Positions 27,451-53,816 are shown, counted from the first letter of the stretch. The stretch is DNA of 64,000 bases from Candidatus Omnitrophota bacterium (GCA_035368605.1 DAOSLF010000009.1:7079-71078); one strand, 5' to 3'. A program made the numbers and translations. Notes: generated by a model not told the origin, from the letters alone.

Positions 27451-27629
27451 AACTTTAAAGCGGTGATTACTTTTTTAAGCATCAGGATTTTTGAGGAAAG
27501 GCCTTCTGGCTGCGGTCAAAACGTGATTTCGTTGGATTATGATCGGGAAATGATCTCGGCGGATTGAATTCGGCTTTTCCTGAAAAAAGCGGCCATAGGA
27601 TAGCTATAGCCGATAGTTAGGTCAAGTTT

Positions 27630-28715
27630 TTATTTCTTCTTGCCGGCCGTAACGGGCTGGACCTTGGAAAGCTGGATTCCAAGCTCTTTCGGTTCTACCG
27701 CGTATTCGAGCGCGGCTTCATAGCTGATGATGCCCTGCGCGTAAAGCTGTTTCAGATGGTCGTCGAGCGTGATCATGCCGTAACGGGACCCGGTCTGGAT
27801 CTCGGAAAGAACCTGATAGGTCTTGGCCTCGCGGATGAGGTTGCGGATCGCCGGCGTCGCGAACATGATCTCGAAAGCGGCAACGCGGCCCTTTCCGTCG
27901 ATCTTCGGGACAAGGACCTGGGAAATCACGGCCACGATCGTGGCGGAAAGCTGGATGCGGATCTGGGCCTGCTGTTCCGGCGGGAACACGTCGATGATGC
28001 GGTCCACCGTGCGCGGCGCACCGGTCGTGTGGAGCGTCGAAAAAACAAGGTGACCTGTTTCGGCGGCGCGGATCGCGGACTCCATGGTCGCGATATCGCG
28101 CATTTCCCCGATCAGGATTACGTCCGGGTCCTGGCGGAGGGCCTTGACGATGGCTTCGGAGAAGGTCGGGACATCCTCCCCGACTTCACGTTGAGTGACC
28201 ACGGATTTTTTGTGTTTGTGCATGAACTCGACCGGGTCTTCCGCGGTGATGATATGGCGCGGAAAATTCTCGTTGATATAGTTCAGCATCGTCGCGAGCG
28301 AGGTCGTTTTCCCGGATCCCGTGGGCCCCGTCACGAGGATCAGACCGCGCGGAAGGTTCAATATCTCGATCAGTTGCTGCGGCAGCCCGATCTCCTGAAA
28401 GGAATAGAACTTCGAGGGAAGCAGGCGGAGGACCATCGCGAAATGCCCCTGCTGTTTATAGCAGGACACGCGGAAGCGGGCCTTCTCGCCGAAAGTGAAG
28501 CCGAAATCGACACCGCCAACCTCCTCGATCTTTTTCCGCTGGGCCTCGGTCGTAATTTCCTTGGCCAGCATCTCGGTATCCTGGGCCGTCAGGGGCTTGT
28601 CGTCGATCGAGACCAGATCACCGATCATGCGGAAGGTCACGGGGCGGTTGACGGTCAGGTGAATATCGGAAGCCTCGCGTTCAATCGCTTCTATGAGAAT
28701 CTCTTCAATGGCCAT
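27630..28715 (-). CDS. pilT: type IV pilus retraction ATPase PilT/PilU family
   Basis: GSGKTTSLATM Walker A, AEDPVEF, and the GEMRD His/Asp boxes typical of PilT. Confidence 0.85.
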   Translation of the reverse strand: MAIEEILIEAIEREASDIHLTVNRPVTFRMIGDLVSIDDKPLTAQDTEMLAKEITTEAQRKKIEEVGGVDFGFTFGEKARFRVSCYKQQGHFAMVLRLLPSKFYSFQEIGLPQQLIEILNLPRGLILVTGPTGSGKTTSLATMLNYINENFPRHIITAEDPVEFMHKHKKSVVTQREVGEDVPTFSEAIVKALRQDPDVILIGEMRDIATMESAIRAAETGHLVFSTLHTTGAPRTVDRIIDVFPPEQQAQIRIQLSATIVAVISQVLVPKIDGKGRVAAFEIMFATPAIRNLIREAKTYQVLSEIQTGSRYGMITLDDHLKQLYAQGIISYEAALEYAVEPKELGIQLSKVQPVTAGKKK

Positions 28716-28749: not shown

Positions 28750-29265
28750 TTAGAAAATGTACGACAGAATCCCGCCGAGAATCGTCATGATGCAGAAAGC
28801 AAGAAGGCAAAGAAGCGGCCATCCCCTGACCGTTTCCGGAATCTTCGAGAAACGCACGGCATAGCGGAGCCCCGCAAACGCCGTCAAAAAGAGAAAAAGC
28901 CCGCCGACAACGGCTCCGGCCAGCGACAGCTGAAGGGCAAGGTCTTTTGCTTCCAGGACCGCAAGCGCGATCACGGCCGCCGTCAGGTGGAAAACCCCGT
29001 CCTTTTTCTGGTACCGCCCCGCCAAAAACGCGAAACACCAGAGGACCAGAAAATCCGCGCCCCGAACGGCTGCCGCCGTCCTGTCCCATAAAAGCAGCGC
29101 ATTGAATATTGTCAGGGACAGCGCCACGGTCAGGAAAAGGTCCAGCATCTCCCGCCAAACTCCGGAAAGCTCCGGGAAAACGCTTTCCCGAGGAAGAAAG
29201 GCATGCCTTCCGCGCACGGCAAAAAGGAAACCCGCTCCCGCGATGACCCAGATCCAGGCGATCAT
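28750..29265 (-). CDS. 6-TM membrane protein, possible divergent RnfA/RnfE-family subunit
   Basis: Start set at ATG 29265 with a GGAGG RBS; the ORF-track N-terminal 112 aa is rejected. Six hydrophobic helices. The C-terminal segment LRYAVRFSKIPETVRGWPLLCLLAFCIM resembles the RnfA/E tail (R...VP..RG..I.LI.AGLM). The conserved GLCP/TNC motifs are absent. Confidence 0.3.
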   Translation of the reverse strand: MIAWIWVIAGAGFLFAVRGRHAFLPRESVFPELSGVWREMLDLFLTVALSLTIFNALLLWDRTAAAVRGADFLVLWCFAFLAGRYQKKDGVFHLTAAVIALAVLEAKDLALQLSLAGAVVGGLFLFLTAFAGLRYAVRFSKIPETVRGWPLLCLLAFCIMTILGGILSYIF

Positions 29266-29804
29266 GAGGAAGCCTCCTTTTTGGCAGCGCCAAAATCCTT
29301 CCGCGGACTGCGAACCGAAGGGCGATTCCAGAGATAGACCGCGACAAACATCATCAGAAAGATCCATGCGGGGGTGACCACAAAACCTCTCGCCGGATCC
29401 AGGGCGCACGCGGAGGAAAGCGCTCCCGCAAAAACAAAAAAACCGGCGCCGGCGATCAAATGCCCGAAAAAATAGCCCGGTTGTTTTTTCGGGATCGCCG
29501 TGGTTTTGCGCGCGTTCAACACCCCCGAGGGGAATAACAGATAGACGCTGAGGACCCAGAAAGGCGCGAGGCCCGCCGCGCCCCAAAGAAGTTGCCCCCA
29601 CAACGCGAGCCAGAACGGGAAAACCTGCCTCGCCCCGGCTTCGGGGAAAAACCGCCGGAGCGGCCAGAAAAAAAGAAGGGACAGCCAGTACAGTCCGGCC
29701 ACCGCAGCCGCAAGACGCCAGGCGCTGACACCGGATCCCGCATACGCCATGAACGGCAGCCAGGCCAGGAGCATTCGCGAAAAAACACTATCGGGCATTT
29801 TCAT
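29262..29804 (-). CDS. 6-TM membrane protein of unknown family (Rnf-cluster associated)
   Basis: Start taken at MKMPDS (29804), which gives ATGA coupling to the upstream small ORF. Six predicted TM helices. No recognisable Rnf motifs. Confidence 0.3.
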   Translation of the reverse strand: MKMPDSVFSRMLLAWLPFMAYAGSGVSAWRLAAAVAGLYWLSLLFFWPLRRFFPEAGARQVFPFWLALWGQLLWGAAGLAPFWVLSVYLLFPSGVLNARKTTAIPKKQPGYFFGHLIAGAGFFVFAGALSSACALDPARGFVVTPAWIFLMMFVAVYLWNRPSVRSPRKDFGAAKKEASS

Positions 29805-29944
29805 CGGTAAAAGACCTTTCGGACCTTGACGGCAACCCCCGGGTTTTCCGTGAGCGTTCGCGCACTGAGGAATAGCAGGACCATCCCTGCCAGGAATACC
29901 ACGAGGAAACACCACCGGAGAACCGCCGACAGGATCTTCTTCAT
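29801..29944 (-). CDS. small single-TM protein (47 aa) at the RnfG position
   Basis: MKKILSAVLRWCFLVVFLAGMVLLFL... is coupled to both neighbours by ATGA overlaps. Too short to be an FMN-binding RnfG. Confidence 0.2.
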   Translation of the reverse strand: MKKILSAVLRWCFLVVFLAGMVLLFLSARTLTENPGVAVKVRKVFYR

Positions 29945-30768
29945 GATCCCTCCCCCGGCCGCGGGTGAAGCCGCGCGTTCATCCACGGGACCGTAAGGTT
30001 CGTGATCAGGATCGCGTATCCTGTCGCAGCGACAGCCGGATAATGAAGCCCCAGCCCTGCCGTCAGGAACGCCGCCAGTATCGCAAAAACGTTGGCCCCC
30101 TTCCGTGTCAACGGCAGCGTCACCGTATCGGTGATGAGAAAAAAGGCGGCGAACACCGTGATGCCGAAGCCCCTTTCCGGGTCTTTCATTTCTCCCAAGG
30201 CGAGCGCCGACATCCATGAAATGGCCAGATACCAGAGCGGCGTTTCAAAATAGATCAGCCTCCGGCTCAGGAAGATCGCCGCACCCGCGAGGATTCCGCC
30301 AAGGACAAGCGGTTCGTTCGCGTGACTGAAAAGTACAGGCGCCTCCAGCCGGTCCGGGAAGATCATATCGAGAAAAATCCGCGCAAAGACCGCCGGCTGA
30401 AAAAGGCGCCCGCCGAGGCCGCCGAAACATTCCTGGAGGATCACGATCGCGACAAAATCTCCCGTCAGGATCGCTGCCGTGGGACATCCCGGCGGAAGCA
30501 GGAATGCCAGCGTCAGTCCCGTGAGAAAGGCATCTCCGGTTGTAGTCGTTGTTTTTTTGCCCGAAGACCTCCCGCACAGCCATTCCATGGCGGCGGCCCC
30601 CGCAGATGAAGTCATGAGTATCCTGAAAAAATCCATCCCCCCGGCCAGGATTCCCGCGACCGCGACAGGAACGAGCGCGGCACATTTCCACCAGATCCGT
30701 TTCGTTGTGGAGTCGGAAGCCGCGATATGCGGCGGAGAAGCCCGGAGGCAGGAGATAGCGCGACTCAT
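29941..30768 (-). CDS. RnfD/NqrB family membrane subunit (short)
   Basis: TGDAFLTGLTLAFLLPPG matches the RnfD DGGAL.TGLLLAL.LPP motif. ITDTVTLPLTRKG matches the ATDPVT.P motif. 275 aa is shorter than canonical RnfD. Confidence 0.55.
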   Translation of the reverse strand: MSRAISCLRASPPHIAASDSTTKRIWWKCAALVPVAVAGILAGGMDFFRILMTSSAGAAAMEWLCGRSSGKKTTTTTGDAFLTGLTLAFLLPPGCPTAAILTGDFVAIVILQECFGGLGGRLFQPAVFARIFLDMIFPDRLEAPVLFSHANEPLVLGGILAGAAIFLSRRLIYFETPLWYLAISWMSALALGEMKDPERGFGITVFAAFFLITDTVTLPLTRKGANVFAILAAFLTAGLGLHYPAVAATGYAILITNLTVPWMNARLHPRPGEGS

Positions 30769-30769
30769 T

Positions 30770-32044
30770 TCACAGCCCTGCCTTTGCTTGATGGATGAGA
30801 TCGATCATGGGCCGTTTCGAAGGACAAACATAAGCGCAAATGCCGCATTCGATGCAATCCTTCACACGCCATTCCGCGGCGATCCCGAATTCGCCGGTCT
30901 CGGCGGCAAGCGTGATCGTGGCCGGGGAAAGAAAAACAGGGCAGGTGTCCACACACCGGTTACAGCGAATGCACGGTTCTTCGCGCCGCTCTCCCGCGAT
31001 CTCGGCGGGTAATGCCAGGATCGCGTTCGTCGCGGGCGTCACGACCGCCGTTCCGTCCCCCCGTTGGGCGGTCCCCCGCATTGGCCCTCCCGCAATCAGC
31101 CTCGCCGGTTCGCGCAAAAACCCCTTGCAGGCCCGGACCGCTTCCCGGAACGAGACTCCAAACGGCAGCCAGAGGTTCCTCGGTTCCGCCACACATTCAC
31201 CGGCCACGGTCACGATCCGCTCAAAGAAGGGTTTCCCGAAATAAACGGCTTCATAGGCGGCATGGGCCGTCGAGGCGTTGAGGATCCGGGAATCAAGAGA
31301 GAATTCCGCCGGCAGGAAATCTGCCGCTCCCATCGGGTAGATCGCGGGGACCTTGAAAACCTCGAAGGAGGCCGCCTTGAGAAGGTAAATCTTGCTTTTA
31401 ACAAGCTCGAAAAGTTCGCGTTCGGCATCCTCGATCAAAAAAACAACGCGTTCGGCGCCGGATGCTTTTCTTAAAAGCTCCGCTCCTTTAAGAACCTCGG
31501 GCAAGTGTCCCGTCATGAGGATGTTCTCGGACGAGACGTACGGCTCCGGTTCGCAACCATTGATGACGATCGTGCGCGGCGGTTTGCCCTCCGTTTCCAG
31601 GCGGCGGCGCAGGGGCTCGTTCGTTCCATCCGTCACCACGAGACCGAGCTCACAGAAAAGGTTCAAGAGGTCCGGACCGGAAAGAGATTCGGCGTCCGCG
31701 CGCGGGGTGACGAATTTGGGCGGAGCCTGTTTGAAATCGCTTTCCGCCGCGATCTCGATAAAGCTTTCCTCCCCGCCTTCCGGTAAGCTCCGTTTCCCGA
31801 CGGTCTCGACCTTCCCCGAAATACCGGAAAAGACGGGAATCCCTCTTGCGTCCGCCGGTATCGCGACCTTCCCACCGGCCTCGACCCTGTCGCCGGCCGC
31901 CACACAGGGCGAACACGGTATTCCCTCGCAGGAAACGGGCGTGATCCGGAGCCGCTTGATCAGATAGGGCCGCTTGAGGGTGTTAAGAAGGGCCGCCTCT
32001 TTCTTTCTTTCGAGACGGACCCCCTGTGTCCTTGCAGGAAGCAA
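30770..32044 (-). CDS. RnfC-like electron transport subunit with two 4Fe-4S motifs
   Basis: IVINGCEPEPY matches the RnfC INGAECEPY signature. Two ferredoxin-type motifs are present: CIRCNRCVDTCP and CIECGICAYVCP. Confidence 0.7.
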   Translation of the reverse strand: MLPARTQGVRLERKKEAALLNTLKRPYLIKRLRITPVSCEGIPCSPCVAAGDRVEAGGKVAIPADARGIPVFSGISGKVETVGKRSLPEGGEESFIEIAAESDFKQAPPKFVTPRADAESLSGPDLLNLFCELGLVVTDGTNEPLRRRLETEGKPPRTIVINGCEPEPYVSSENILMTGHLPEVLKGAELLRKASGAERVVFLIEDAERELFELVKSKIYLLKAASFEVFKVPAIYPMGAADFLPAEFSLDSRILNASTAHAAYEAVYFGKPFFERIVTVAGECVAEPRNLWLPFGVSFREAVRACKGFLREPARLIAGGPMRGTAQRGDGTAVVTPATNAILALPAEIAGERREEPCIRCNRCVDTCPVFLSPATITLAAETGEFGIAAEWRVKDCIECGICAYVCPSKRPMIDLIHQAKAGL

Positions 32045-32062: not shown

Positions 32063-32803
32063 TTAAGCTTTGGGAACGGCTTTCGAGAAGGCGTCGCCCA
32101 GAATCCTGTCGACCTGGATGCGCTCCCGGAACACGTCCTTGAGCCTGCCGAAACTGCAGCTTTCGACCTGCAGATCGTCAATATCGGGAAGGCTCCCAAG
32201 GATCGGAACACCCGAGAGGTCGTGGATCACTTTCGGATTCGTCAGTTCAGCCAGGGAATAATTGCTGACGGCGACCCGGTTGAAAATAATGCCTTTGATC
32301 TCCAGCCCGCGGATCATGGCGGCATCGACCGTCAGCAGCGCGTGATTGATCGCCCCGAGACCGGCGTGGCTCACAACGATCACCGGCAGTTTCATGTCGC
32401 GGATCAGGTTCGCGACATAGTAATCCTTTTTCAGCGGGACCATGATTCCGCCGATTCCCTCCACAATCATGTAATCGTAGTGTTTGCCGAGATCGCGGAA
32501 ACTTTTGAGGATGCGATCGACGTTCACTTCCTTCTTTTCGAGCATCGCGGCAACGTTCGGTGAAAGCGGGTTCCGGAAACGCGCGGGGCTGTGAAGCGGC
32601 GGGAACTGGCCTTCGGCCGCCTCCATCAGGAATGCCGCGTCGTGGGAGATGAGCCTTTCTTCCGCGCCGTAACAACCGGTCGCGACCGGCTTCATCACCC
32701 CGACCTTGATGCCGCGATCGCGGAGACAGAGCGCAAGCCCCGCCGAAACAATGGTCTTCCCGACTTCTGTATCCGTGCCTGTGATGAAAATACCGGCCTT
32801 CAT
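32063..32803 (-). CDS. bioD: dethiobiotin synthetase
   Basis: MKAGIFITGTDTEVGKT P-loop and BioD fold. Start trimmed to M13 of the ORF. Confidence 0.8.
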   Translation of the reverse strand: MKAGIFITGTDTEVGKTIVSAGLALCLRDRGIKVGVMKPVATGCYGAEERLISHDAAFLMEAAEGQFPPLHSPARFRNPLSPNVAAMLEKKEVNVDRILKSFRDLGKHYDYMIVEGIGGIMVPLKKDYYVANLIRDMKLPVIVVSHAGLGAINHALLTVDAAMIRGLEIKGIIFNRVAVSNYSLAELTNPKVIHDLSGVPILGSLPDIDDLQVESCSFGRLKDVFRERIQVDRILGDAFSKAVPKA

Positions 32804-32891
32804 GAGACCCTCGCGCCACGGGCCGCGGACAACGCACAACAGGGAAGTTTTCCCGGTGCGTGTTGTGTGTTGTGCGTTTTGCAGGCAATAA

Positions 32892-34262
32892 TCATTCCGT
32901 TCCTTCCTTTATAGACTCATACGCGATATCAAGCAATCTGTTCAGTTCTTTTTCCGTCATCGCAAGCGGAGGCATCAGGACAATCACCGGACCGAGCGGC
33001 CGCAGGATCGCGCCTTTTTTTCTTGCGAGCTCGATCACGCGCACCCCGATCTTCTCTTTCGGCGCGAACTCCGCCCTTGTTCGTTTGTCCCGAACCAATT
33101 CAATCCCGATCATGGTTCCGGCCTGCCGGATATCCCCCACCGCGTCGAGCTTGTAAAAATCCTGTAATCTTTTTCGCAAAAGCACGATCTTCGGCTGAAG
33201 TTTCTCGATCGTCCGGTCTTTTTTGAAAAGCTCGAGCGTCGCGAGCGCCGCCGCGCACGCAAGCGGGTTCGCCGTGTACGTGTGCCCGTGGAAAAAGGTC
33301 TTGAAGTCCTCGTATTGCCCGAGAAACGCTTCATAAACCCGTTCTGTTGTTAGGGTTGCGGCGAGCGGAAGATAGCCTCCCGTAAGCCCCTTGGCCACGG
33401 TCATGATGTCGGGAATCACGCCTTCGTGTTCAGCCGCAAACAGCTTCCCCGTTCGCCCGAAACCCGTCGCGACCTCGTCAAAGATCAAGAGCGTATTATA
33501 CTTTCGCGTCAGCTCCCTCGCACGGGAAATGTATCCCGCGGGCTGATCGATCATCCCCGCGGCACCCTGCATGAGCGGTTCCATCACAAGCGCGGCAACT
33601 TCCTCCGCGTTTTCGCGCAGAACCTTTTCCATCATCTCGAGGGATTCTTGCTTGACCTGTTCCGCGTCATCGCTCGCGGGCCACCGGTAGCGGTACGGAG
33701 AGGGAACCTCCAGGGTCTCGAAGAGAAGCGGCCGGTAGATTTGATGAAAAAGATCGATCCCGCCCACACTCACGGACCCGATCGTGTCGCCATGATAAGC
33801 GTTCGTGAGTTTGACGAACTTCTTTTTTTTCGGTTGTCCTCGCTGCTGCCAGTACTGATACGCCATTTTCAGCGCGATCTCGACCGATTCGGAACCGGAA
33901 TCCGAGTAGAACACCCGCGTCAGCGGACGGTCACCGCTCCCGGGCGACGGTTTCGGGGCGATCGCGATCAGCTTTTCCGACAGCTCGATCGCCGCCGGAT
34001 GTGAGAGACCGAGAAACGTCGTGTGGGCAATCTTTCCGAGCTGCCTCTTGACGGCCTTGTCGATCGCAGGGACCCGGTGCCCGAACACATTGCACCAGAG
34101 CGACGACACGCCGTCCAGATACCGCCGCCCATCCACATCGATCAGATAGCAGCCCGCTCCCTTTTCGATGACCGGGAATTCTTCCTCCTGCCAATCCCGC
34201 ATCTGGGTGAACGGATGCCAGATATGTTTTCGGTCGCTTGAGACAAGCTGTGCTTTATTCAT
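32892..34262 (-). CDS. bioA: adenosylmethionine-8-amino-7-oxononanoate aminotransferase
   Basis: Class III PLP aminotransferase with BioA-specific features (HIWHPFTQM, DEVATGFGRTGKLFA). Confidence 0.9.
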   Translation of the reverse strand: MNKAQLVSSDRKHIWHPFTQMRDWQEEEFPVIEKGAGCYLIDVDGRRYLDGVSSLWCNVFGHRVPAIDKAVKRQLGKIAHTTFLGLSHPAAIELSEKLIAIAPKPSPGSGDRPLTRVFYSDSGSESVEIALKMAYQYWQQRGQPKKKKFVKLTNAYHGDTIGSVSVGGIDLFHQIYRPLLFETLEVPSPYRYRWPASDDAEQVKQESLEMMEKVLRENAEEVAALVMEPLMQGAAGMIDQPAGYISRARELTRKYNTLLIFDEVATGFGRTGKLFAAEHEGVIPDIMTVAKGLTGGYLPLAATLTTERVYEAFLGQYEDFKTFFHGHTYTANPLACAAALATLELFKKDRTIEKLQPKIVLLRKRLQDFYKLDAVGDIRQAGTMIGIELVRDKRTRAEFAPKEKIGVRVIELARKKGAILRPLGPVIVLMPPLAMTEKELNRLLDIAYESIKEGTE

Positions 34263-34318
34263 AAATCAATCGGGTTATTTCCCGCCGGCGATCATGCCGG
34301 GGATCGATCCCGCATGGT

Positions 34319-34981
34319 TTACCGGTCATTTTTTTTCGCATACCCCACCGGCTGCGTCAGGATGATCTTCTGCTCCGGCCGAAGCCCCATCTCCTTCGCG
34401 AGACGCTCCCGGTCGATCCAGCCAAGAACCACGGTCGCGAGTCCCTCGGACGCGCAATAAAGATAGACGTTCTGGCTGATGAATCCCGTGTCCGCGGCGC
34501 TGTAGAATTTCGCGTCCTCTTCGGAACCGCCGCGAAATTTGCCGGGGTCCGCAACGAAAATCAGCCCTACCGGCGCTTCCCGGACAAAATCCTGCTTCCC
34601 GGCAAACGGCCGGATATCTTTCGCGAGCACCGGAATCAGCGCATGTTGTTCGGCATTATACAGGTAAAGTCCTTCTTTTTTGGCGACATAAATATCGATC
34701 TCGCGGGCATTATGCGCTGAGGGTACAGTCCGTCGTCCGTCCGGGCGGTTCACGCCGGCCGCGGCCCAGAGAAGGCCGGAAAGGACCTGAGGGGCCAGCT
34801 CTTCGCCGCTGAATTCCCGCGTGCTCTTCCGCTCCGCAAGCGCTTTCATCAGGGGTTGTCCGCCGTCTTTTTGCGGCGGCAGAAGCCGGAGAGGCTCCCG
34901 GGTCCCCGCCAAAAGGGGCATCGGCACCGCCAGGAGTACGAGAACCGTTAAAAAAAACGCCGCTGTTTTTTTGTCTTTCAT
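34319..34981 (-). CDS. nitroreductase-family protein with N-terminal signal/TM segment
   Basis: Start at MKDKKTAAFFLTVLVLL (ATG 34981); the ORF-track N-terminal 118 aa is rejected. Nitroreductase fold motifs (RKSTREF, VGYAK). Sits between bioF and bioA. Confidence 0.55.
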   Translation of the reverse strand: MKDKKTAAFFLTVLVLLAVPMPLLAGTREPLRLLPPQKDGGQPLMKALAERKSTREFSGEELAPQVLSGLLWAAAGVNRPDGRRTVPSAHNAREIDIYVAKKEGLYLYNAEQHALIPVLAKDIRPFAGKQDFVREAPVGLIFVADPGKFRGGSEEDAKFYSAADTGFISQNVYLYCASEGLATVVLGWIDRERLAKEMGLRPEQKIILTQPVGYAKKNDR

Positions 34982-35162
34982 ATTCCCTGCCTTTCCGCGG
35001 GGCTTCCGCCGAGTCACTTGCCGACAAAATAATATTGCACACTTCCCGGAAGGCACAGCAAAATATACGGAAGAAGCCACCGGGTCATCGTACCGCCTAC
35101 GGGGATTTTTAACCAGGAAAGAAGAACCGCCGCGGGGATCAGGCGCGGAATATCCGGCGCGA

Positions 35163-36359
35163 TCATGGATTCTTTCCATCCCGTTCTCCGAGGGCGGCAA
35201 ACGCGTCAATGAGCGCGTCGATCTCTGTGGCCGTGTGAGCCGCGCTGACCGTGACGCGAAGTCGGGCTTTTCCTTTGGGAACCGTCGGATACCGGACAGC
35301 GGGGATGTAAATGCCTTTTGAGAGAAGGAACTCAAAAGCGGCGAGCGCCTTCCCCTCGTCTCCCAGGACCACGGGCAGGATAGCGGAATCGGGCGAAGCC
35401 AGCGAAAAGCCGAGCCTTGTCAGTCCTTCATGAACCTTGCGGATATTCTCCCGGAGCTTTTCCCGGATCCCGGGCTCCTCCTCCATCACTGTAAAAGCTT
35501 CCGCGGCGGCAGCGCAAAGAACCGGCGGCAGTGCCGTCGCGAAAACAAAGGGCCGCGCGAAATTGATGAGATGATCGACCAGGACCTTGTCCGCCGCGAC
35601 AAAGCCCCCGAGCCCACCCGCCGCTTTTGACAGCGTTCCCATGACGAGGTCGACGCCTTCCGAAAAACCTTCCGTCGCCCCGCGGCCTTCTTTGCCGAGA
35701 ACGCCCGTCCCGTGCGCGTCGTCCACGACAAGCAAGGCGCCGTACTTTTTCCGGAGCCGGATTATCTGCCCGAGGTCCGCAAGGTCGCCGTCCATGCTGA
35801 AAACACTCTCCGTCACGAGAATCTTCCTGCGGCCAGGGCATTTCTTCAGAAGATTCTCGCACTTCGCGTAGTTCCTGTGGGGGAAAACCCGGAGCTCCGC
35901 TTTCGAAAGACGGGCGCCGTCCACAAGCGAGGCATGACAGAGTTTGTCCATAATGATCGTGTCGCCTTCTTCCGCGAAGGCGGTCAGGATACCGAGATTC
36001 GCGAGGAAACCGGAACCAAAGACAAGCGCATTTTCCTTGTTCTTGAACCGGGCGATTTTTTTTTCGAGCGCTTCGTGGACATCCGTGCTCCCCGAGATCA
36101 GGCGCGCGGCGCCGGCACCAACCCCATAGCGGTCGAGGGCTTTCTTCGCGGCGCAAACCACGCGGGGATGACGACTGAGTCCGAGATAATCATTCGAGCA
36201 GAAAAGAAGGAGCTTTCTTCCCTCCCAAACAGCCCGGGTCCCGCGGTTCTCTTCAAGCGCGCGAAGTCGGCGATAGAGGTTTTTTCCTTCCAAAGCCGTC
36301 AATCCGGCCCGAACCTCCTGATATATCGAAACATTCTCCAAGACAGAATCCTCCCGCAT
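35163..36359 (-). CDS. bioF: 8-amino-7-oxononanoate synthase
   Basis: Alpha-oxoamine synthase family (SNDYLGL, VDDAHGTGVLG, SFSKAAG-like TLSKAAGG lysine). Confidence 0.85.
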   Translation of the reverse strand: MREDSVLENVSIYQEVRAGLTALEGKNLYRRLRALEENRGTRAVWEGRKLLLFCSNDYLGLSRHPRVVCAAKKALDRYGVGAGAARLISGSTDVHEALEKKIARFKNKENALVFGSGFLANLGILTAFAEEGDTIIMDKLCHASLVDGARLSKAELRVFPHRNYAKCENLLKKCPGRRKILVTESVFSMDGDLADLGQIIRLRKKYGALLVVDDAHGTGVLGKEGRGATEGFSEGVDLVMGTLSKAAGGLGGFVAADKVLVDHLINFARPFVFATALPPVLCAAAAEAFTVMEEEPGIREKLRENIRKVHEGLTRLGFSLASPDSAILPVVLGDEGKALAAFEFLLSKGIYIPAVRYPTVPKGKARLRVTVSAAHTATEIDALIDAFAALGERDGKNP

Positions 36360-37567
36360 TAAACCTTTCGCAACAAAAGCGCCATTGCCTGGCCGCCGAA
36401 GCCCATGGAAACCTTGAGGGCCATCGCGATCTTTTTCTTGCGTGCCCGAAGCGGAGTGTAATCCAGGTCGCAGGCCTCGTCTTTTTCTTCCAGATTCAGG
36501 GTCGGCGGCACGAAGCCATCCCGCATCGCCACGAGCATCGCCGCGATCTCCACCGCCCCCGTTGCGCCGAGCATATGTCCCGTCGCGGCCTTGGTCGAGC
36601 TCATGGCCATACCATAGGCGGCTTCCCCGAAAGCCTCTTTGAGCTCAGCTGTTTCATAAACATCGCCGGGTTTCGTCCCCGTCCCGTGGAGATGGACATA
36701 ATCGATCTCGGCACAAGAAATGCCGGAGCGCGCCAACAACGTCTTCAAGGCCCTTGAAAGCGCGTGGTCGCCGTGATCGAACAGGATGGCGTGTTTTGAG
36801 TCCTGGGCGCATGCCGCATCGAGAACCTCTCCGTAGATCCGGATGCCGAGAGCCTTCGCGCTCTCAAGCGTTTCTAGAAAAAGGACCGCCGCGCCTTCGC
36901 CGACAAGAAACCCGTCCCTTCTTTTATCGAAAGGACGTATGTCCCGTTTCGCGAGCGCCTTCATGTTGTTGTACCCCGCCAGCAGGATCGGAACAATAGA
37001 GGCGTCCGAGGCTCCCGCGAGACAATAGTCGGCGTGGCCTTCCTGCACCATGCGAAACCCCGCGGTCACTGCCGCGACACCGGTCGCGCACGCCGCCACA
37101 TAACATTTCGCCGGGCCTTTGATCTTCATCCGCCGTGCGATCCACTGGTTTCCGGAATTCGGCATCGCGCTCGAATAGATGCGCGCGCCCAGAATCGCAC
37201 TTGGGTGCTTCAGGAACCGGTCCCGGAAGCTATCCAGCGTGTAAACCCCTCCCTTGGAAGAGCTGATTGAAAGACCGACCGCGTAGGGGTCAACCGCGCT
37301 CATATCGAATCGCGCGTCCTGGACGGCGGATTCAGCCGCCGCAACAGCGTACTGGATAAAGGGGTCCAGGATATGCGTGCCGTATTGGTGGGGGTTGAAA
37401 GCCTTGACGCGGAAAACGGGCGGAAACCGGCATCCGAAAACATCCGAAACGGACTCCGCCTCTTTTCCCGAAACCCCGTTCCGCAGGTTCGCGGAGAATT
37501 CTTCGAGCGTGTTTCCGATGGGCGTCAACACCCCCATCCCTGTCACGACAACCCGTCGGTTTCTCAT
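36359..37567 (-). CDS. beta-ketoacyl-ACP synthase I/II-like (FabF/FabB family) in biotin cluster
   Basis: RRVVVTGMGVLTPIGN N-terminus, active-site Cys (AACATG), and the HGTGT and GHMLGATG His motifs. Confidence 0.85.
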   Translation of the reverse strand: MRNRRVVVTGMGVLTPIGNTLEEFSANLRNGVSGKEAESVSDVFGCRFPPVFRVKAFNPHQYGTHILDPFIQYAVAAAESAVQDARFDMSAVDPYAVGLSISSSKGGVYTLDSFRDRFLKHPSAILGARIYSSAMPNSGNQWIARRMKIKGPAKCYVAACATGVAAVTAGFRMVQEGHADYCLAGASDASIVPILLAGYNNMKALAKRDIRPFDKRRDGFLVGEGAAVLFLETLESAKALGIRIYGEVLDAACAQDSKHAILFDHGDHALSRALKTLLARSGISCAEIDYVHLHGTGTKPGDVYETAELKEAFGEAAYGMAMSSTKAATGHMLGATGAVEIAAMLVAMRDGFVPPTLNLEEKDEACDLDYTPLRARKKKIAMALKVSMGFGGQAMALLLRKV

Positions 37568-37579
37568 GGAAATGGGCTA

Positions 37580-38308
37580 TTATAGCGGACGCGACTCAAA
37601 ATGAAACACCTGTCCCGTGACCCCGCGCACAAGACCGGAGGAGAGATAGACCAGAAAGCCGGCAACCTCCTCCGGGTCGGAGATTGTCCGGGTCGGGCTC
37701 CTCTCCAACGCGGCCTGAAACGTTTCTTCCGGAACGTTTTCGGTCATACGCGACTTCATGAAACCGGGGTTCACGGCGTTCACAAGAACCTGTTTTTTGC
37801 CCAGTTCGCGCGCAAGGACCTTGGTCATCGCGATCAGACCGCCCTTGGCGGCCGCATAGTTCGCCGCACCGGGAAGTCCCTCCAGTCCGGCGCGGCTTAC
37901 GATCATGAAAACCTTGGACGGTCTGACCTTCAATAGAAGAGGGAGCAGTTTTTGCGTGAGGTAAAAAGGCGCCTTGAGCCCGACTGCCAGAACACGGTCC
38001 CATTCGGCTTCGCTGAGACTCCCGAGGCGGGCATCCGCGGTCGCCGCGGCATTGTGGACCAGAACATCCAGGGTTTCGTGCGCGGCCAGGAACTCCTTCA
38101 GGAATACGTCCATTGACTCTGTGGACCCGAGATCCACGCGGTGTTTTCGGGCGCCCGTTTTTTCAAGGGCGAGGGCTCTCGCTTTCGATTCATGCCAGGT
38201 GAAATGGACTTCGGCGCCACGCGCGACGGCCTGCCGGACAAAGGCGTTTCCAAGTTCGCTCGTGCCGCCTGTGACCAGAATCTTTTTACGGGACAGGAGG
38301 AGGTTCAA
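37580..38308 (-). CDS. SDR-family oxidoreductase, FabG-like 3-oxoacyl-ACP reductase
   Basis: TGGTSELG Rossmann motif, NAA, and YAAAKGG catalytic Tyr/Lys. Confidence 0.8.
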   Translation of the reverse strand: MNLLLSRKKILVTGGTSELGNAFVRQAVARGAEVHFTWHESKARALALEKTGARKHRVDLGSTESMDVFLKEFLAAHETLDVLVHNAAATADARLGSLSEAEWDRVLAVGLKAPFYLTQKLLPLLLKVRPSKVFMIVSRAGLEGLPGAANYAAAKGGLIAMTKVLARELGKKQVLVNAVNPGFMKSRMTENVPEETFQAALERSPTRTISDPEEVAGFLVYLSSGLVRGVTGQVFHFESRPL

Positions 38309-38312
38309 ATGT

Positions 38313-39341
38313 TCACGCGGCCGTGACGGGCTCGCTTTTGACCGTATAACCAGCCCGCTTCAGGATCTTGAGGTCTTCGGCAACGGGATTCCCCCGTGTC
38401 GTCAAATAACCGCCCACGACGAGCCCGTTCGCCCCGCCCTTCAGGGCTTTTGCCTGATAAAAGGCCCCGAGGTTGAGCTCTTTGCCGCCCGCAAGCTTGA
38501 TGTTGGCGCGCGGATGGATGAAACGGTAGATCGCGATCATTTTCAGAGCGTCAACTGGATCGATCGGCGATTGCTTTTCGAGCGGTGTGCCGGGCCGGGG
38601 GTTCAGGATATTGACGGGAAGGCAGTGCGGTTCGTATTTTTTCAGCTCGAACGCGAGCCGGAGCCGGTCTTCCGTGCTTTCCCCAAGTCCGAAGATCCCT
38701 CCCGAACAGATCTCGACATCGTTCGTTTTGAGGAAGTCCAGGGTTTCCATGCGTTCGTCATAGGTATGTGTCGAAACGATCTTTGGGTAGAACTCGCGCG
38801 AGCATTGAAGATTATGATTGAAGCGCCGCATGCCGACCTTGCGAAGTTCCGCAATCTGCCCGGTCGTCAGGTTCCCGAGGGACCCGTCCAGGCAAAGATC
38901 CGTCTCCTCCGAAAGTATCCGGAACGTTTCCCGGACCTGTTCGAACTCCCGGTCGTTCAGAGTCTCCCCGCTCGTCACGATGCAAAAACTTTTGATACCG
39001 GCGGCTTCGCACTGTTGGGCGGCCTCGAGGATCTTTTCGGGGCTCATCAAGGGGTAGCGGCTCACGCCGGTCTCGTAGCGGGCGGATTGCGAGCAGAATT
39101 TGCAGTCTTCTCCGCAAAGATAGCTCTTGGCGTTCACGAGCGCGCATAGATCAGGCTTCGAAGATCGGAAATGAAGGGTCAGTTCATGGGCGGAAGCGAG
39201 AATCAGATCAATCTCCTCGGGAGAGGAGACCCTCGCGAGGCGAAGGGCTTCGTCGAACGTAACCTCGCCGCCGGCAAGGACCTTTTCTTTCATCTCCCGG
39301 ACGAAAGGAACGATTGACGGATCGATGGGATCGCGAAACAT
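38313..39341 (-). CDS. bioB: biotin synthase (radical SAM)
   Basis: CGEDCKFCSQS radical-SAM cluster motif and BioB C-terminal domain. Confidence 0.9.
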   Translation of the reverse strand: MFRDPIDPSIVPFVREMKEKVLAGGEVTFDEALRLARVSSPEEIDLILASAHELTLHFRSSKPDLCALVNAKSYLCGEDCKFCSQSARYETGVSRYPLMSPEKILEAAQQCEAAGIKSFCIVTSGETLNDREFEQVRETFRILSEETDLCLDGSLGNLTTGQIAELRKVGMRRFNHNLQCSREFYPKIVSTHTYDERMETLDFLKTNDVEICSGGIFGLGESTEDRLRLAFELKKYEPHCLPVNILNPRPGTPLEKQSPIDPVDALKMIAIYRFIHPRANIKLAGGKELNLGAFYQAKALKGGANGLVVGGYLTTRGNPVAEDLKILKRAGYTVKSEPVTAA

Positions 39342-40716: not shown

Positions 40717-42807
40717 TTAAAAGAACTTTTCCCCTTCCAGGACCTTTTTGGCCTTTTGGGCGATGGGATCCTTCATAAAATAGTTCTGGATAGCCCCTTT
40801 CCTGAGATGGTTCGCGATCGCGAGAAGGCTCATCCCCTGATCCAGCGCCAGATATTGATACGTGACCTGCCCGTTCCGGAGATTAATGCTGTCATAAAAA
40901 CCGTATTCGCCGTAAACATCATATTCCTGGAGCATTTTTCTGAGGTTTTTCACGGCATCCGACGGAAGGGTTTCCAGCGCGAGAAAACTGACGTAAGGGG
41001 CGATAACGCTTTTGTCCGGATAGCCCTTCGCTCCCAGCTTCCGGATACCGTATTCCCCATAAATCCACTTCCGGCCGCTTGCAAGGGCTGCCGGCGAAAT
41101 CCCCCAGACCGGATACCCTTTTTCTTCAAGGGCATAATCCCGGTGGATCTCGGTAGCGATCCTGTTGTTTGGCTTGAAGCTTTGAGGCGCAAGCCTGCCC
41201 TCCGGAATAACGAGCGTGGGCATAAGAAATTCAAAAAGAGACCCGCCCCAGCTCGGAACAATCTTTTTGGAATCCACAACGTAATGGCCCTGGAAATACC
41301 CAACGCCTTCCCGCGCCTCCCAGGTTCCCACGGGTTTTTGTGTCTGCCAAACCCAGGCTTCCGGCGCCGTTCGGAACAGATACCACCAATGATCTTCGGG
41401 AAGGTCCCCCTTTCCGATCCCGATAAAACTCATGGTTCGCGCCTCGGTCACGAGCATCCCATAATGATATGGGGTCAGCCCCTTGCGCTTCATGTCATAG
41501 CCAATCGCTATGTGACTTGTGTCAGGGTCCAGGAACTCCCCGAAATTCATCTCATCCAGAATCTTTCCGGATTCCCGGGCGACATGCCCCGGGAACGCCT
41601 GACGCGCCACGATCATCGCCGCCGCAAGCCACGCGTTATCAACGCTGGAAACGAACTCTCGCGACACGGAAAGCTTGTTCGTTTCATAGAAATTGTAGAA
41701 AAACCCATTCCACCGCTTGAGTTTTTGGAGGACATCCAGGATTTCCCCGACGCGTTTTTCCGCTTCGGGTTTTTTGATGTACCCGAGCTCAAGCGCGGCA
41801 ACCGTTCCCATAAGGTCCATGGCTATGTTTGTTGGCGACGTGTAAACGCCCGCCATCGGGGAATCCCCCACTTTCACGTGATCGAGAACCAGGTTGCTGT
41901 TCTTGTCGGCCGCTTCATTGAAAAAACGCCAAGTGCTCCGGCCGATCAAGTCGAGAAATTTGTCGTCGTTCCTGGTTGCCAACAATTGCTTCTTTCCTTC
42001 ATAGTCCTTCACAACCCTGGGAAAACCCTTGAGGTTGTCGAGTACGCTCTCGAATCCCACTTCGTTGTTTCCGAAGAAGGCGATCTCGTCGAGCCAAAGT
42101 GACGCGCGGGATCTTTTTCCGCGCCCGATCGCGGTGAATGCGATCCGGGACAGCTGGTCGAAATCGAGCCCCTTGAAGAATTCCACGGGGAGCACCGCGT
42201 CTTTCCATTGCCCCGCGTCCACGCAAGCGTCCGTGATATCGCGGGTCACCGACCGGCCGGTCCAGTCGGTGAGGCTGACCCGGATCCGTCCTTCAAACTT
42301 TGTTTTTGCTTTGGGTTCAAGGCGGCACTTGATGGCCAAAAAACGCGCCTGGCTCATATCGAGTCTTTCGAGCGAGGTATAAAGCGTGAACTGCTGCCGG
42401 TCCTTCATATCAAAATCCATCTTGAGGGAGTGCCCCGGCCGAAGGCCGCGCGCGTCCTCTTTTGCGAGCTCCATGGTGACTTCGCCGGCCTTGGCGTTCT
42501 CGAGCCGCCAATAGCTGTTGAGACGGCTCTTCCATTCCTTGCCGTTGAAATCGTCGACCACGCAGAATCGGGGAGATGTGAGAAGGGACTTGTTCGGAGG
42601 AAGGGATTGATAAATCTGGGGGGCATCAAACTGGACCACATCGTCGATCCCGCCCCGAGCGTCATTGGCCCTAGCCGCAAGCGGGTCCGCCGGTTTCTTG
42701 GCTTCGGCCGCGATCGCTGTCCCGGCACAGGAGAGACACACCAGAGCAAAAAAAACGTTCCTCAGGACCATCGCAGCTCCTGAAGAACGCTTTCTTCGCG
42801 ATCTCAT
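40717..42807 (-). CDS. secreted hypothetical protein, possibly glycoside-hydrolase-like
   Basis: Signal peptide (AGTAIAAEA), 696 aa. Located downstream of a GH94 phosphorylase and an SBP. Functional call by context only. Confidence 0.4.
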   Translation of the reverse strand: MRSRRKRSSGAAMVLRNVFFALVCLSCAGTAIAAEAKKPADPLAARANDARGGIDDVVQFDAPQIYQSLPPNKSLLTSPRFCVVDDFNGKEWKSRLNSYWRLENAKAGEVTMELAKEDARGLRPGHSLKMDFDMKDRQQFTLYTSLERLDMSQARFLAIKCRLEPKAKTKFEGRIRVSLTDWTGRSVTRDITDACVDAGQWKDAVLPVEFFKGLDFDQLSRIAFTAIGRGKRSRASLWLDEIAFFGNNEVGFESVLDNLKGFPRVVKDYEGKKQLLATRNDDKFLDLIGRSTWRFFNEAADKNSNLVLDHVKVGDSPMAGVYTSPTNIAMDLMGTVAALELGYIKKPEAEKRVGEILDVLQKLKRWNGFFYNFYETNKLSVSREFVSSVDNAWLAAAMIVARQAFPGHVARESGKILDEMNFGEFLDPDTSHIAIGYDMKRKGLTPYHYGMLVTEARTMSFIGIGKGDLPEDHWWYLFRTAPEAWVWQTQKPVGTWEAREGVGYFQGHYVVDSKKIVPSWGGSLFEFLMPTLVIPEGRLAPQSFKPNNRIATEIHRDYALEEKGYPVWGISPAALASGRKWIYGEYGIRKLGAKGYPDKSVIAPYVSFLALETLPSDAVKNLRKMLQEYDVYGEYGFYDSINLRNGQVTYQYLALDQGMSLLAIANHLRKGAIQNYFMKDPIAQKAKKVLEGEKFF

Positions 42808-42819
42808 GAATGCGCTCCG

Positions 42820-45276: not shown

Positions 45277-45317
45277 GGTGGGACGATCGCTCCTTTGGGA
45301 TTTCGGAAGAAAACGTC

Positions 45318-50618: not shown

Positions 50619-50650
50619 AGAAGAGCTCCTTTCGCGATCCTTCCGAGGAT

Positions 50651-51517: not shown

Positions 51518-51531
51518 GAGAACCCTCCGCA

Positions 51532-51547
51532 CGTTTCACGTGAAACA
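51532..51547. promoter_or_regulatory. parS site (cGTTTCACGTGAAACa)
   Basis: Matches the 16-bp parS consensus TGTTNCACGTGAAACA (15/16). Sits 15 bp upstream of the parA start. Confidence 0.7.
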
Positions 51548-53736: not shown

Positions 53737-53816
53737 TTTCAGTACGGGGTACGGAGTCCGGGGTGCGGCGAAAAACGAGTGTTCTTCAGCTCCGCACGCC
53801 GTACTCCGTGTTGTTT

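Follow-up and report, generated by a model that had tools for sequence, protein, structure and literature searches.

Analysis of a 64,000-nucleotide stretch of DNA from a Candidatus Omnitrophota bacterium (the window) revealed a module of five genes, located at positions 28750-32044 on the minus strand, that is very probably a cofactor-depleted derivative of Rnf unable to run the canonical reaction. The reference for this comparison was RnfABCDGE, the Na+/H+-translocating ferredoxin:NAD+ oxidoreductase, with the structures 7ZC6, 8AHX, and 9ERI-9ERL; products of the module are marked here by an asterisk. The best explanation, which we consider likely, is that the protein scaffold was kept and the transmembrane electron loop of Rnf/Nqr was dismantled.

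The five genes are translationally coupled and all five ORFs are intact (Table 1). They follow the Rnf gene order C-D-(G)-E-A, with an ATGA overlap at three junctions and the arrangement TGAaATG between rnfC and rnfD. An earlier sequence-only reading of this DNA had described five coupled minus-strand genes, and all five ORFs were found as claimed, as was every motif that it quoted from the encoded proteins (INGCEPEPY, two CxxCxxCxxxCP, TGLTLAFLLPPG, and ITDTVTLP). The upstream neighbor bioD is the final gene of a bioB-fabG-fabF-bioF-nitroreductase-bioA-bioD operon. A consensus scan found no terminator-like site in the gap between bioD and rnfC*, and the first intergenic terminator-like site downstream of the module is the hairpin located 3' of pilT.

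Table 1. Features of the Rnf-derived module and its neighbors in the window
Feature	Position	Strand	Evidence or remark
bioD	32063..32839	-	ends 18 nt upstream of rnfC*
rnfC* (RnfC homolog, 424 aa)	30770..32044	-	TTG start; AAGGAG ribosome-binding site upstream
Degenerate flavin/NADH loop of RnfC*, residues 134-150, GLVVTDGTNEPLRRRLE	31595..31645	-	canonical counterpart GIVGLGGATFPTHVKL
First [4Fe-4S] motif of RnfC*, CIRCNRCVDTCP	30938..30973	-	sequence comparison
Second [4Fe-4S] motif of RnfC*, CIECGICAYVCP	30821..30856	-	sequence comparison
rnfD* (RnfD homolog, 275 aa, without five-helix linker)	29941..30768	-	PF03116; phmmer to 7zc6_D
Deletion junction in RnfD*, residues about 145-157	30298..30336	-	flavinylated linker gone
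Asp214 of RnfD*, retained	30127..30129	-	position mapping to Asp248
47-aa single-TM peptide, rnfG position	29801..29944	-	slot kept in 22/22 genomes
rnfE* (divergent RnfE homolog, 180 aa)	29262..29804	-	family profile; AF2 model and Foldseek
rnfA* (divergent RnfA homolog, 171 aa)	28750..29265	-	family profile; hhalign
pilT	27630..28715	-	34 nt downstream of rnfA*; conserved downstream neighbor
Terminator-like hairpin and T-run, 3' of pilT	27590..27612	-	consensus scan only

RnfC subunits were recognized by TIGR01945 / PF13375 + PF01512 + SLBB + Fer4. RnfC* scored 253.3 bits against TIGR01945 (NCBIfam cut-off, 245.95) and carries the Pfam domains RnfC_N, Complex1_51K, SLBB, and Fer4; it is nearer to RnfC than to NqrA (253 bits versus 51 and 20 bits with two NqrA models). 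Three RnfC domains (barrel-sandwich, NuoF-like, and SLBB) are retained in the protein, as is the ferredoxin domain with its 2x[4Fe-4S], and phmmer matched the protein to the solved RnfC chains 9eri_C, 7zc6_C, and 8ahx_C with an E value of ~1e-51. All eight cysteines of the two CxxCxxCxxxCP motifs are invariant in each family member covering the region. In canonical Rnf, the C-terminal ferredoxin domain of RnfC lies directly above the riboflavin site of RnfD. Residue-by-residue alignment of the flavin/NADH glycine loop with the three solved RnfC chains and E. coli RsxC placed GLVVTDGTNEPL of the window protein where the solved chains have GIVG(L/M)GGA(T/I)FP. Among some 60 RnfC* sequences compared, the loop varies, carries substitutions, or is deleted, and it is near-canonical in L034 and L085 only; RnfC-like controls from other loci with a readable loop carry GxVGxGGAxFP or a close variant in all cases but one (L100). 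The loss of this loop had been missed by the sequence-only reading. The CEPEPY half of the flavin site is still there, and RnfC* might, judging from this half of the pocket, bind a flavin or NAD weakly.

Analysis of RnfD* with PF03116 (NQR2_RnfD_RnfE; 148.5 bits, in two stretches) identified it as an RnfD subunit, which falls under the TIGR01946 subfamily cut-off (110 versus 207 bits). Alignment by phmmer placed residues 9-145 on residues 9-145 of 7zc6_D and residues 157-265 on residues 190-299, so that residues 146-189 of 7zc6_D, including Thr153, have no counterpart. In RnfD, the linker comprises residues 140-190, and Thr153 (C. tetanomorphum) bears the covalent FMN (PMC9588780). With E. coli RsxD as the reference, in which an SQAT motif is the equivalent of the flavinylated-Thr site, the linker was found to be deleted throughout the window lineage (23 of 23 members). 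The sequence-only reading had noted the short length of RnfD* and suggested a search for the covalent-FMN threonine; alignment to both 7zc6_D and RsxD revealed that the entire Thr-bearing linker is missing. That the short length is a clean deletion of this flavinylated linker had escaped it. Of the two riboflavin ligands (PMC9588780; bioRxiv 10.1101/2024.06.21.599731), one survives: Asp214, within a retained TDxxT motif, corresponds to the riboflavin/Na+ ligand Asp248 of C. tetanomorphum (Asp249 in A. woodii). Its riboflavin partner Asn124 (Asn123/124) is Gln in the window protein and mostly His in relatives, and the Asn90 position is occupied by Leu. Retention of riboflavin in RnfD* is uncertain because of this replacement by Gln or His and because the N123A exchange kills the activity of canonical Rnf (bioRxiv 10.1101/2024.06.21.599731). 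At the N terminus of RnfD*, an SPPHI arm aligns with the arm of canonical RnfD that the solved structure shows buried in RnfC (PMC9588780).

The 180-aa and 171-aa proteins are divergent RnfE and RnfA subunits, shorter than their canonical counterparts by ~20-40 residues. The profile of the 180-aa family (74 sequences) matched RnfE over the full length (9eri_E; E=9.8e-9), with further matches to 7zc6_E, 8ahx_E, and NqrD; the best Foldseek matches of the AF2 model (pLDDT 84.5) in the PDB were 7zc6_E and NqrD (TM 0.52). The profile of the 171-aa family (55 sequences) matched RnfA and NqrE only, over TM5-TM6 (9eri_A, E=7.2e-5; also 8ahx_A, 7xk3_E, and 7zc6_A). Comparison of rnfA* with E. coli RsxA by hhalign gave P=2.4e-4, and a single sister-clade sequence (L034) matched RnfA three times and also NqrE (best E=2.3e-4). 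Foldseek returned no significant match for the RnfA* model, and single RnfE* or RnfA* sequences miss the Pfam model. By their profile matches to RnfE/NqrD and RnfA/NqrE, the two 6-TM proteins are not novel partners. Of the two interpretations offered by the sequence-only reading, the recruitment of RnfC and RnfD into a complex with such partners thus found no support, whereas that of a highly degenerate Rnf held: the five genes go back to rnfC, D, (G), E, and A, the peptide gene probably so, and the losses are specific to cofactor sites.

Canonical RnfA and RnfE coordinate [2Fe-2S] through C25 and C113 and through C25 and C108, respectively, and mutation of these ligands abolishes activity (bioRxiv 10.1101/2024.06.21.599731). 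In the module, these four positions hold Leu, Val, and similar residues. RnfE* has Leu16 for Cys25 and Val87 for Cys108 (A. woodii numbering); among 27 family members, the two columns contain F/I/L and A/C/I/L/V, with Cys in L035 only. At the columns of the RsxA cysteines, no family member has Cys, in an alignment whose N-terminal half is less reliable. The GxCP motif occurs in 0 of 61 RnfE* and 0 of 62 RnfA* sequences. The missing GLCP and TNC motifs reported earlier for both 6-TM proteins are truly lost; the converse case, ordinary RnfE and RnfA with intact motifs, proved right as to homology and wrong as to the motifs. In addition, Asn107 of RnfE is replaced by Ser in RnfE*, and the TM4a/b loop preceding the lost Cys is ~12 residues shorter. 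The best conserved part of RnfA* is a cytoplasmic segment, LRY..FS.vP..kGWP, comparable to IRERL..vP..G.PI of the RnfB-docking region. The R...vP...G.P tail of RnfA is kept, in agreement with the RnfA-like C terminus noticed earlier in the last gene.

A search of all six frames of the 64-kb window for ferredoxin-type Cys motifs revealed two, both in rnfC*, and E. coli RsxB and RsxG queries gave no tblastn match in the window. No FMN_bind or RsxG-like sequence was present in the window or its flanks, and 22 related genomes have neither RnfB nor RnfG within 10 kb of the module. These results bear out the earlier statement that RnfB and RnfG are absent nearby. The slot of rnfG is filled by the 47-aa single-TM peptide, pointed out already in the sequence-only reading, whose ORF start overlaps the rnfD* stop. 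This ORF is regarded as a genuine gene because a homologous peptide of ~35 aa (MNIKK..KYLFL.LFL.LL.AILYAAQ.LR) fills this slot in all 22 genomes. Judging from its position, the peptide probably represents the membrane anchor left over from an RnfG cut down to 35-47 aa; sequence homology to RnfG could not be demonstrated, and none of the three small proteins matched Pfam or NCBIfam. In sister clades, the slot contains proteins of 108 aa and 242 aa, each with an N-terminal TM helix.

Together with the published mutagenesis of canonical Rnf, the losses at the cofactor sites indicate that the module cannot serve as a ferredoxin:NAD+ oxidoreductase or a redox-driven Na+/H+ pump. An ordinary Rnf whose rnfB and rnfG are located elsewhere, working as in published Omnitrophota metabolic reconstructions, is already contradicted and highly improbable: RnfC passes and RnfD approaches the family thresholds, two members of the 171-aa family are named "RnfA subunit" by JGI, and published papers give Rnf as conserved in the phylum, but the family as a whole lacks four independent cofactor sites shown by mutagenesis in A. 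woodii to be essential. The proteins might also be paralogs that mix with, assemble, or regulate a canonical Rnf encoded elsewhere in the genome, e.g., by borrowing RnfB and RnfG in trans. Canonical rnfBCDGEA operons do occur in Omnitrophota MAGs (supplement of PMC8542988; KO lists of PMC10066038), and the strong conservation of the RnfA* segment homologous to the RnfB-docking region would fit such a role. However, a supply of both subunits in trans would leave the canonical path broken, given that the [2Fe-2S] ligands and the flavinylation site of RnfD are missing, which makes this explanation improbable.

The locus bioA-bioD-module-pilT-polA is conserved in 22 Omnitrophota species genomes (GTDB) and was also found in ~59 metagenome loci. 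Clustered at 90% identity, the family forms >110 groups; at 50%, it has 98 representatives. The Rnf-like genes are far less conserved than their neighbors bioA, pilT, and polA (34-48% versus 69-80% identity), as would be expected of a decaying relic, i.e., pseudogenes on the way to loss. Decay is nevertheless exceedingly unlikely, since intact ORFs, steady lengths, and translational coupling persist in >80 loci, invariant residues are maintained among lineages at ~40% identity, and dN/dS values of 0.06-0.43 for all four large genes (C, D, E, and A) contradict it. Because the genes are under purifying selection and the degeneration is specific to cofactor sites, the module is not in decay; it is best explained, with good confidence, as a vertically inherited, lineage-specific Rnf derivative of Candidatus Omnitrophota. 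Purifying selection on RnfE* and RnfA* is comparable to that on RnfC*.

A precedent for an RnfC-type subunit that stays in the complex after loss of its flavin site is NqrA of Na+-NQR, an RnfC homolog without any redox cofactor that has been proposed to stabilize the RnfD/NqrB subunit (PMC12174285). The two cases differ in that both Fe-S clusters are lost in NqrA and both motifs are kept in RnfC*; conversely, the membrane cofactors are all intact in NQR and lost in the module. No NqrF-like gene (FAD + 2Fe-2S NADH dehydrogenase subunit) is adjacent to the module.

The features strictly kept are the two [4Fe-4S] motifs of RnfC*. As the favored but tentative mechanism, which we regard as possible rather than probable, the module might form a short electron stub from Fe-S clusters to the membrane. 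RnfC* would dock on RnfD* through the conserved N-terminal RnfD arm and act as a membrane-anchored Fe-S relay, exchanging electrons between a soluble cytoplasmic partner (e.g., ferredoxin) and a site in or at RnfD*. This site would perhaps be a retained riboflavin, with a membrane or periplasmic acceptor beyond it; as riboflavin retention is uncertain, the stub may stop at the Fe-S clusters. RnfE*, RnfA*, and the small peptide would represent the remaining structural chassis. Purifying selection on RnfE* and RnfA* is stronger than a passive chassis might need.

A somewhat doubtful alternative is a non-redox transporter or channel, in which the RnfD* fold and/or the inverted RnfE*/RnfA* rocker-switch pair would pass Na+, H+, or a small solute by passive conduction or as a secondary carrier, and the Fe-S clusters of RnfC* would be a redox/oxygen sensor or gate or purely structural. 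RnfD is structurally akin to ammonium/urea transporters (Amt), and RnfA/E work by alternating access (PMC12174285; bioRxiv 10.1101/2024.06.21.599731); the membrane subunits are all under selection despite their lost cofactor sites, and predicted loop segments of RnfA* carry the conserved polar motifs A.RG, YQKKTD, and KGWP. Against transport, the residues implicated in Na+ handling are lost (Asn90 and Asn124 of RnfD, Asn107 of RnfE), the TM4a/b loop of RnfE* is shortened, no substrate-related gene is evident among the neighbors, and eight strictly invariant Fe-S cysteines favor a redox over a structural role.

For the Fe-S stub, one possible output is envelope thiol-redox chemistry, as suggested by gene linkage in sister lineages. 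A DsbA-like gene lies between rnfC* and rnfD* in L033-L036 and in 10 metagenome loci. The encoded thiol oxidoreductases are TM-anchored or secreted; those of L033-L035 have intact CPxC sites. The DsbA-like gene is translationally coupled to the membrane-subunit genes, with an ATGA overlap at one junction. In the window lineage, the locus contains no DsbA gene, and RnfD*, RnfE*, and RnfA* offer neither a conserved pair of cysteines nor a cofactor facing the periplasm that could communicate with DsbA. The likeness to DsbB, VKOR, and DsbD-CcdA, which act in the membrane as partners for thioredoxin-fold proteins of the periplasm, is one of genomic analogy only: there is no sequence or fold kinship, and RnfD*, RnfE*, and RnfA* lack a quinone site as well as conserved Cys pairs. 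The comparison is functional speculation.

The membrane cofactors of RNF and NQR have been termed "strictly conserved" (2025 review, PMC12174285), and the family described here breaks this rule. Almost every electron-carrying site of the module is lost, and it is nevertheless kept under selection across an entire lineage of uncultured Omnitrophota; its present role must therefore differ from the Rnf reaction of textbooks.

Analysis of the minus strand of the window revealed five consecutive open reading frames that are coupled by an ATGA overlap at three junctions and by TGAaATG at the junction of the rnfC-like and rnfD-like genes. This confirmed the module described in the sequence-only reading, and each motif quoted there was found. 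A Pfam/NCBIfam search of the module proteins recognized RnfC by TIGR01945 (253 bits, above the cut-off) and assigned the rnfD-like protein to the NQR2_RnfD_RnfE family (148 bits). Single-sequence searches of Pfam, NCBIfam and the PDB with the three small proteins gave no match, and of the search types tried on them, family profiles alone were informative. The Rnf-like genes of the module are marked with an asterisk below.

Coordinates of the Rnf-like module, neighboring features in the window, and selected genes of related loci (L-numbers)
Feature	Locus	Coordinates	Strand	Description
rnfC-like (rnfC*)	window	32044..30770	minus	424 aa; TTG start, AAGGAG 7 nt ahead
rnfD-like (rnfD*)	window	30768..29941	minus	275 aa
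small ORF	window	29944..29801	minus	47 aa, single hydrophobic helix
6-TM protein 1 (rnfE*)	window	29804..29262	minus	180 aa
6-TM protein 2 (rnfA*)	window	29265..28750	minus	171 aa
complete biotin operon	window	32063-39341	minus	directly upstream of module
545-aa ORF	window	11715-13352	minus	
Omp85-family protein	window	13353-14678	minus	
DUF5329 protein	window	14675-15178	minus	
436-aa membrane protein	window	15180-16490	minus	
sugar-use cluster	window	40717-46607	minus	
replication-origin region	window	49647-61938		minus parB, parA, mnmG/gidA; then plus dnaA, dnaN, gyrB
DsbA-like gene	L033	1-540		between rnfC* and rnfD*
DsbA-like gene	L034	1101-1799		between rnfC* and rnfD*
DsbA-like gene	L035	5864-8758		between rnfC* and rnfD*
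DsbA-like genes (several)	L064-L082			between rnfC* and rnfD*
rnfC*, near-canonical loop	L034	1-1050		
rnfC*, near-canonical loop	L085	7983-9299		

The sequence-only reading had left two interpretations, a degenerate Rnf or RnfC and RnfD recruited by novel membrane partners. The profile of the 180-aa family (74 sequences) best matched the solved Acetobacterium woodii RnfE chain 9eri_E over its full length (E=9.8e-9), followed by 7zc6_E, 8ahx_E and NqrD and, more weakly, by RnfA. The AlphaFold model of the 180-aa protein (pLDDT 84.5) had RnfE 7zc6_E and NqrD as top Foldseek matches among 350,000 PDB chains (TM-score 0.52, probability 0.89, with weak E-values). The profile of the 171-aa family (55 sequences) matched RnfA and NqrE chains only, over TM5-TM6 (9eri_A, E=7.2e-5, then 8ahx_A, 7xk3_E and 7zc6_A), and hhalign against Escherichia coli RsxA returned the same segment (P=2.4e-4). 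The RnfA* tail of the sister-clade locus L034 reads LMGLIERLYLTPVPQRLHGLPIFFLTACLLALAFGGF, and plain phmmer with this RnfA* alone retrieved RnfA of three organisms and NqrE (E=2.3e-4). A 3-sequence RnfE* alignment, too shallow as a profile, gave no hhalign match to E. coli RsxE or RsxA. Because the profile and fold matches point to RnfE/NqrD and RnfA/NqrE, novel partners were rejected and the genes were named rnfE* and rnfA*. The degenerate Rnf interpretation held, with homologues of RnfC, RnfD, RnfE and RnfA whose cofactor sites are lost.

The closest database proteins to those of the module came from Candidatus Omnitrophota MAGs. The 171-aa family comprised more than 110 clusters at 90% identity, with members mostly of 165-170 aa and Omnitrophota as the source wherever an organism is given. 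An exhaustive profile search for the 180-aa family yielded 98 representatives at 50% identity, mostly of 150-200 aa, none of which was a recognizable canonical RnfE. The annotation of RnfA* family members is inconsistent: JGI names two 'RnfA subunit' and one 'Stt3' (P0009, P0033, P0090), and the rest are hypothetical or unnamed. Automated annotation may thereby count this module among the Rnf genes of Omnitrophota. Scanning one genome per GTDB species recovered 22 Omnitrophota loci, all with the gene order bioA-bioD-rnfC*-rnfD*-small ORF-rnfE*-rnfA*-pilT-polA. The MAGs with the module include GCA_020632475.1. A scan with the RnfC* alignment added about 59 metagenome loci carrying the RnfC* of this family, and those with readable flanks occupy the same chromosomal place as in the window. 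Distant RnfE* family members share this place in variant operons.

Comparison with the window revealed 69-80% identity for the flanking genes versus 34-48% for the Rnf-like genes. In the closest pairs, dN/dS (Nei-Gojobori) was 0.06-0.43 for all four large Rnf-like genes, which evolve under purifying selection despite their low identity; a pseudogene reading was rejected on these values. Conservation extends to the small ORF, which recurs as a peptide of about 35 aa (MNIKK..KYLFL.LFL.LL.AILYAAQ.LR) with a start that overlaps the stop of rnfD*.

In canonical Rnf, as defined by structures and mutagenesis, electrons pass from the RnfB clusters to the [2Fe-2S] cluster of RnfA/RnfE, the FMN of RnfG, the FMN and then the riboflavin of RnfD, and the 2x[4Fe-4S] clusters and FMN of RnfC to NAD+ (PMC12174285, PMC9588780, bioRxiv 10.1101/2024.06.21.599731). 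RnfB was found neither in the 64-kb window nor within 10 kb of the module in 22 related genomes. The only two ferredoxin-type cysteine motifs in the six frames of the window lie in the rnfC-like gene, and tblastn with E. coli RsxB, RsxG, RsxA and RsxE gave no further match there. The RnfG slot is filled by the small peptide instead. Residues 9-145 and 157-265 of RnfD* align to 9-145 and 190-299 of Clostridium tetanomorphum RnfD. The alignment thus skips the five-helix linker (residues 140-190), which carries the flavinylated Thr153 (PMC9588780), and RnfD* therefore lacks both. This deletion is common to 23/23 lineage members aligned to E. coli RsxD (SQAT motif). A regular expression for the flavinylation motif gave no RnfD* match but also missed most canonical controls. 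The motifs of the control RnfD-type proteins (L099-L119) vary (TTATPL, SGASML, AETPL), and none was found in L100; a simple SGAT expression is therefore invalid, and the loss was judged by the alignment-based deletion.

In canonical Rnf, RnfE contributes Cys25 and Cys108 to the [2Fe-2S] cluster, and RnfA contributes Cys25 and Cys113 (bioRxiv 10.1101/2024.06.21.599731). RnfE* of the window has Leu16 and Val87 at the two RnfE positions. In an alignment of 27 family members, the first of these columns has F/I/L and the second A/C/I/L/V, with cysteine in L035 only, and no RnfE* column reaches 30% cysteine. No RnfA* member has cysteine at the RsxA-cysteine columns, the N-terminal half of this alignment being less reliable. 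The GxCP motif was present in 0/61 RnfE* and 0/62 RnfA* sequences, versus 3/3 canonical controls. The RnfC loop GIVG(L/M)GGA(T/I)FPTHVKL of the three solved chains aligns with GLVVTDGTNEPLRRRLE in the window, where the flavin loop is degenerate. Among about 60 RnfC* sequences, the loop carries substitutions, is hypervariable or is missing, and only L034 (GVVGLGGDMMP) and L085 (GVVGLGGEPFP) have a near-canonical form. The readable RnfC-like loops of control loci in the same scan have GxVGxGGAxFP or a close variant, except L100. L034 and L085 have RnfD*, RnfE* and RnfA* of the divergent family, and in L034 the shortened RnfD and the absent RnfE/RnfA cysteines were read directly. These two loci may represent evolutionary intermediates from which the order of the cofactor losses could be read.

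Other features are retained. All eight cysteines of the two CxxCxxCxxxCP motifs of RnfC* are present in every member covering them, across lineages about 40% identical. RnfD* keeps the N-terminal S-P-P-H-I arm, which is buried in RnfC in the solved structure (PMC9588780), as well as Arg130 and Asp214. The latter corresponds to Asp248/249, a residue that binds riboflavin and Na+ (PMC9588780, bioRxiv 10.1101/2024.06.21.599731). In place of its partner Asn124, the window has Gln and most relatives have His; Leu replaces Asn90 and Gly replaces Ser284. RnfA* keeps the cytoplasmic TM5-TM6 segment, a region that in A. woodii RnfA faces the terminal RnfB cluster (bioRxiv 10.1101/2024.06.21.599731).

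In sister lineages, a gene for a DsbA-like thioredoxin-fold protein lies between rnfC* and rnfD* (L033, L034, L035/L036 and ten metagenome loci), and its stop overlaps the rnfD* start in L034. The fully read proteins (L033-L035) have intact CPxC sites. That of L035 (964 aa) begins with a signal or anchor sequence, followed by four DsbA domains in tandem, each with the active site FHCPFC or YHCPFC. Neither the window nor the loci of its lineage contained a DsbA homologue. In the rnfG slot, L033 has a 242-aa protein, L034 a 108-aa protein and L035 a peptide of about 35 aa; each has an N-terminal TM helix, and none showed demonstrable homology to RnfG. For the small peptide and the 242-aa protein, phmmer against the PDB gave no relevant match and Pfam no family. 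BLASTP of the slot candidates against RsxG gave E=6.7, and the small-peptide HMM against the 242-aa protein gave E=0.38. Since the homology searches to RnfG were all negative, the small peptide is regarded as a putative RnfG stub from its position only.

The module starts 18 nt downstream of bioD, and the pilT start lies 34 nt downstream of rnfA*. The biotin operon has the order bioB, fabG-like SDR, fabF-like KAS, bioF, nitroreductase-family gene, bioA and bioD; its KAS/SDR pair may provide the pimeloyl precursor. The relative L037 has a DUF2007 gene in place of the nitroreductase. A consensus scan detected a good terminator-like site after pilT and none in the bioD-rnfC* and rnfA*-pilT spacers; one long transcript from the bio operon through the module to pilT is faintly suggested. 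A functional link to the biotin operon or pilT was not adopted, because the entire region represents syntenic housekeeping DNA and because sister lineages have intervening genes (mnmA, a methyltransferase).

Given the origin region, in which GC drops to 0.43 at 56-58 kb and GC skew is positive from 58 kb, the module lies about 25 kb from oriC with its genes directed away. Elsewhere in the window, the 436-aa membrane protein weakly matches TLC ATP/ADP transporters (E=3e-12) and MFS_1. A host-dependent lifestyle has been proposed for Omnitrophota, which a nucleotide importer would fit. The 545-aa ORF, without a Pfam match, is a neighbor of the Omp85-family and DUF5329 proteins. The sugar-use cluster encodes a GH94 cellobiose/chitobiose-phosphorylase-type enzyme (818 aa), a putative glucoamylase (696 aa), a solute-binding protein and a ROK-family regulator.

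Canonical rnfBCDGEA operons occur in Omnitrophota MAGs, with RnfD of about 335 aa and RnfG of about 190 aa (PMC8542988 supplement), and Rnf KOs likewise appear in the Omnitrophota data of PMC10066038. The module is therefore probably a paralogue of canonical Rnf. PilT, BioD, BioA and DsbA were searched for in the PMC8542988 supplements, and none is listed.

These results show that the module is a selected, lineage-wide Rnf derivative that strictly keeps the RnfC Fe-S domain and lacks the [2Fe-2S] sites, both covalent-flavin sites, the RnfB input and the RnfC flavin loop. It was rejected as a canonical Rnf because cofactor sites are absent across the family. Judging from published Rnf mutagenesis (bioRxiv 10.1101/2024.06.21.599731) and the lost sites, the module is predicted to be unable to catalyze ferredoxin:NAD+ oxidoreduction or redox-driven Na+ pumping. 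As the most economical reading, we infer a short electron stub. A cytoplasmic partner would exchange electrons with the [4Fe-4S] pair of RnfC*, from which they would travel to a site in RnfD* (riboflavin at Asp214 is one possibility) and onward to some membrane or periplasmic acceptor; RnfE*, RnfA* and the peptide would form the chassis. Envelope thiol redox is a possible output, as the DsbA genes of the sister operons hint. No conserved cysteine pair or periplasm-facing cofactor for a direct relay to DsbA was found in RnfD*, RnfE* or RnfA*. In the main rival to the electron stub, the module would conduct ions or a solute without redox chemistry and have an Fe-S sensor.

No description of a cofactor-less or RnfB/G-less Rnf paralogue was found in the searchable literature. 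The module contradicts the statement that the membrane cofactors of RNF/NQR are strictly conserved (PMC12174285). It is an analogue of the puzzling cofactor-free NqrA. A widespread, selected relative without cofactors represents a natural 'deletion series' that shows which scaffold parts are valuable apart from redox-driven pumping. Since family models recognize RnfC and RnfD in the rnfC-like and rnfD-like genes, metabolic reconstructions of Omnitrophota that count Rnf subunits could take the module for an energy-conserving Rnf. The DsbA-like genes captured in sister operons provide a testable lead on periplasmic thiol redox in quinone-poor anaerobes. A bolder and rather improbable proposal is that evolution has turned the Rnf/Nqr chassis into a membrane machine of a new functional class, whose flavin-poor and cluster-free membrane core carries only a cytoplasmic 2x[4Fe-4S] subunit. 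Such a machine might serve the periplasmic DsbA-like thiol oxidoreductases of anaerobic Omnitrophota as a quinone-independent redox partner, or it might conduct ions or a solute under redox gating; either, if true, would be a function that no RNF/NQR relative is known to have.
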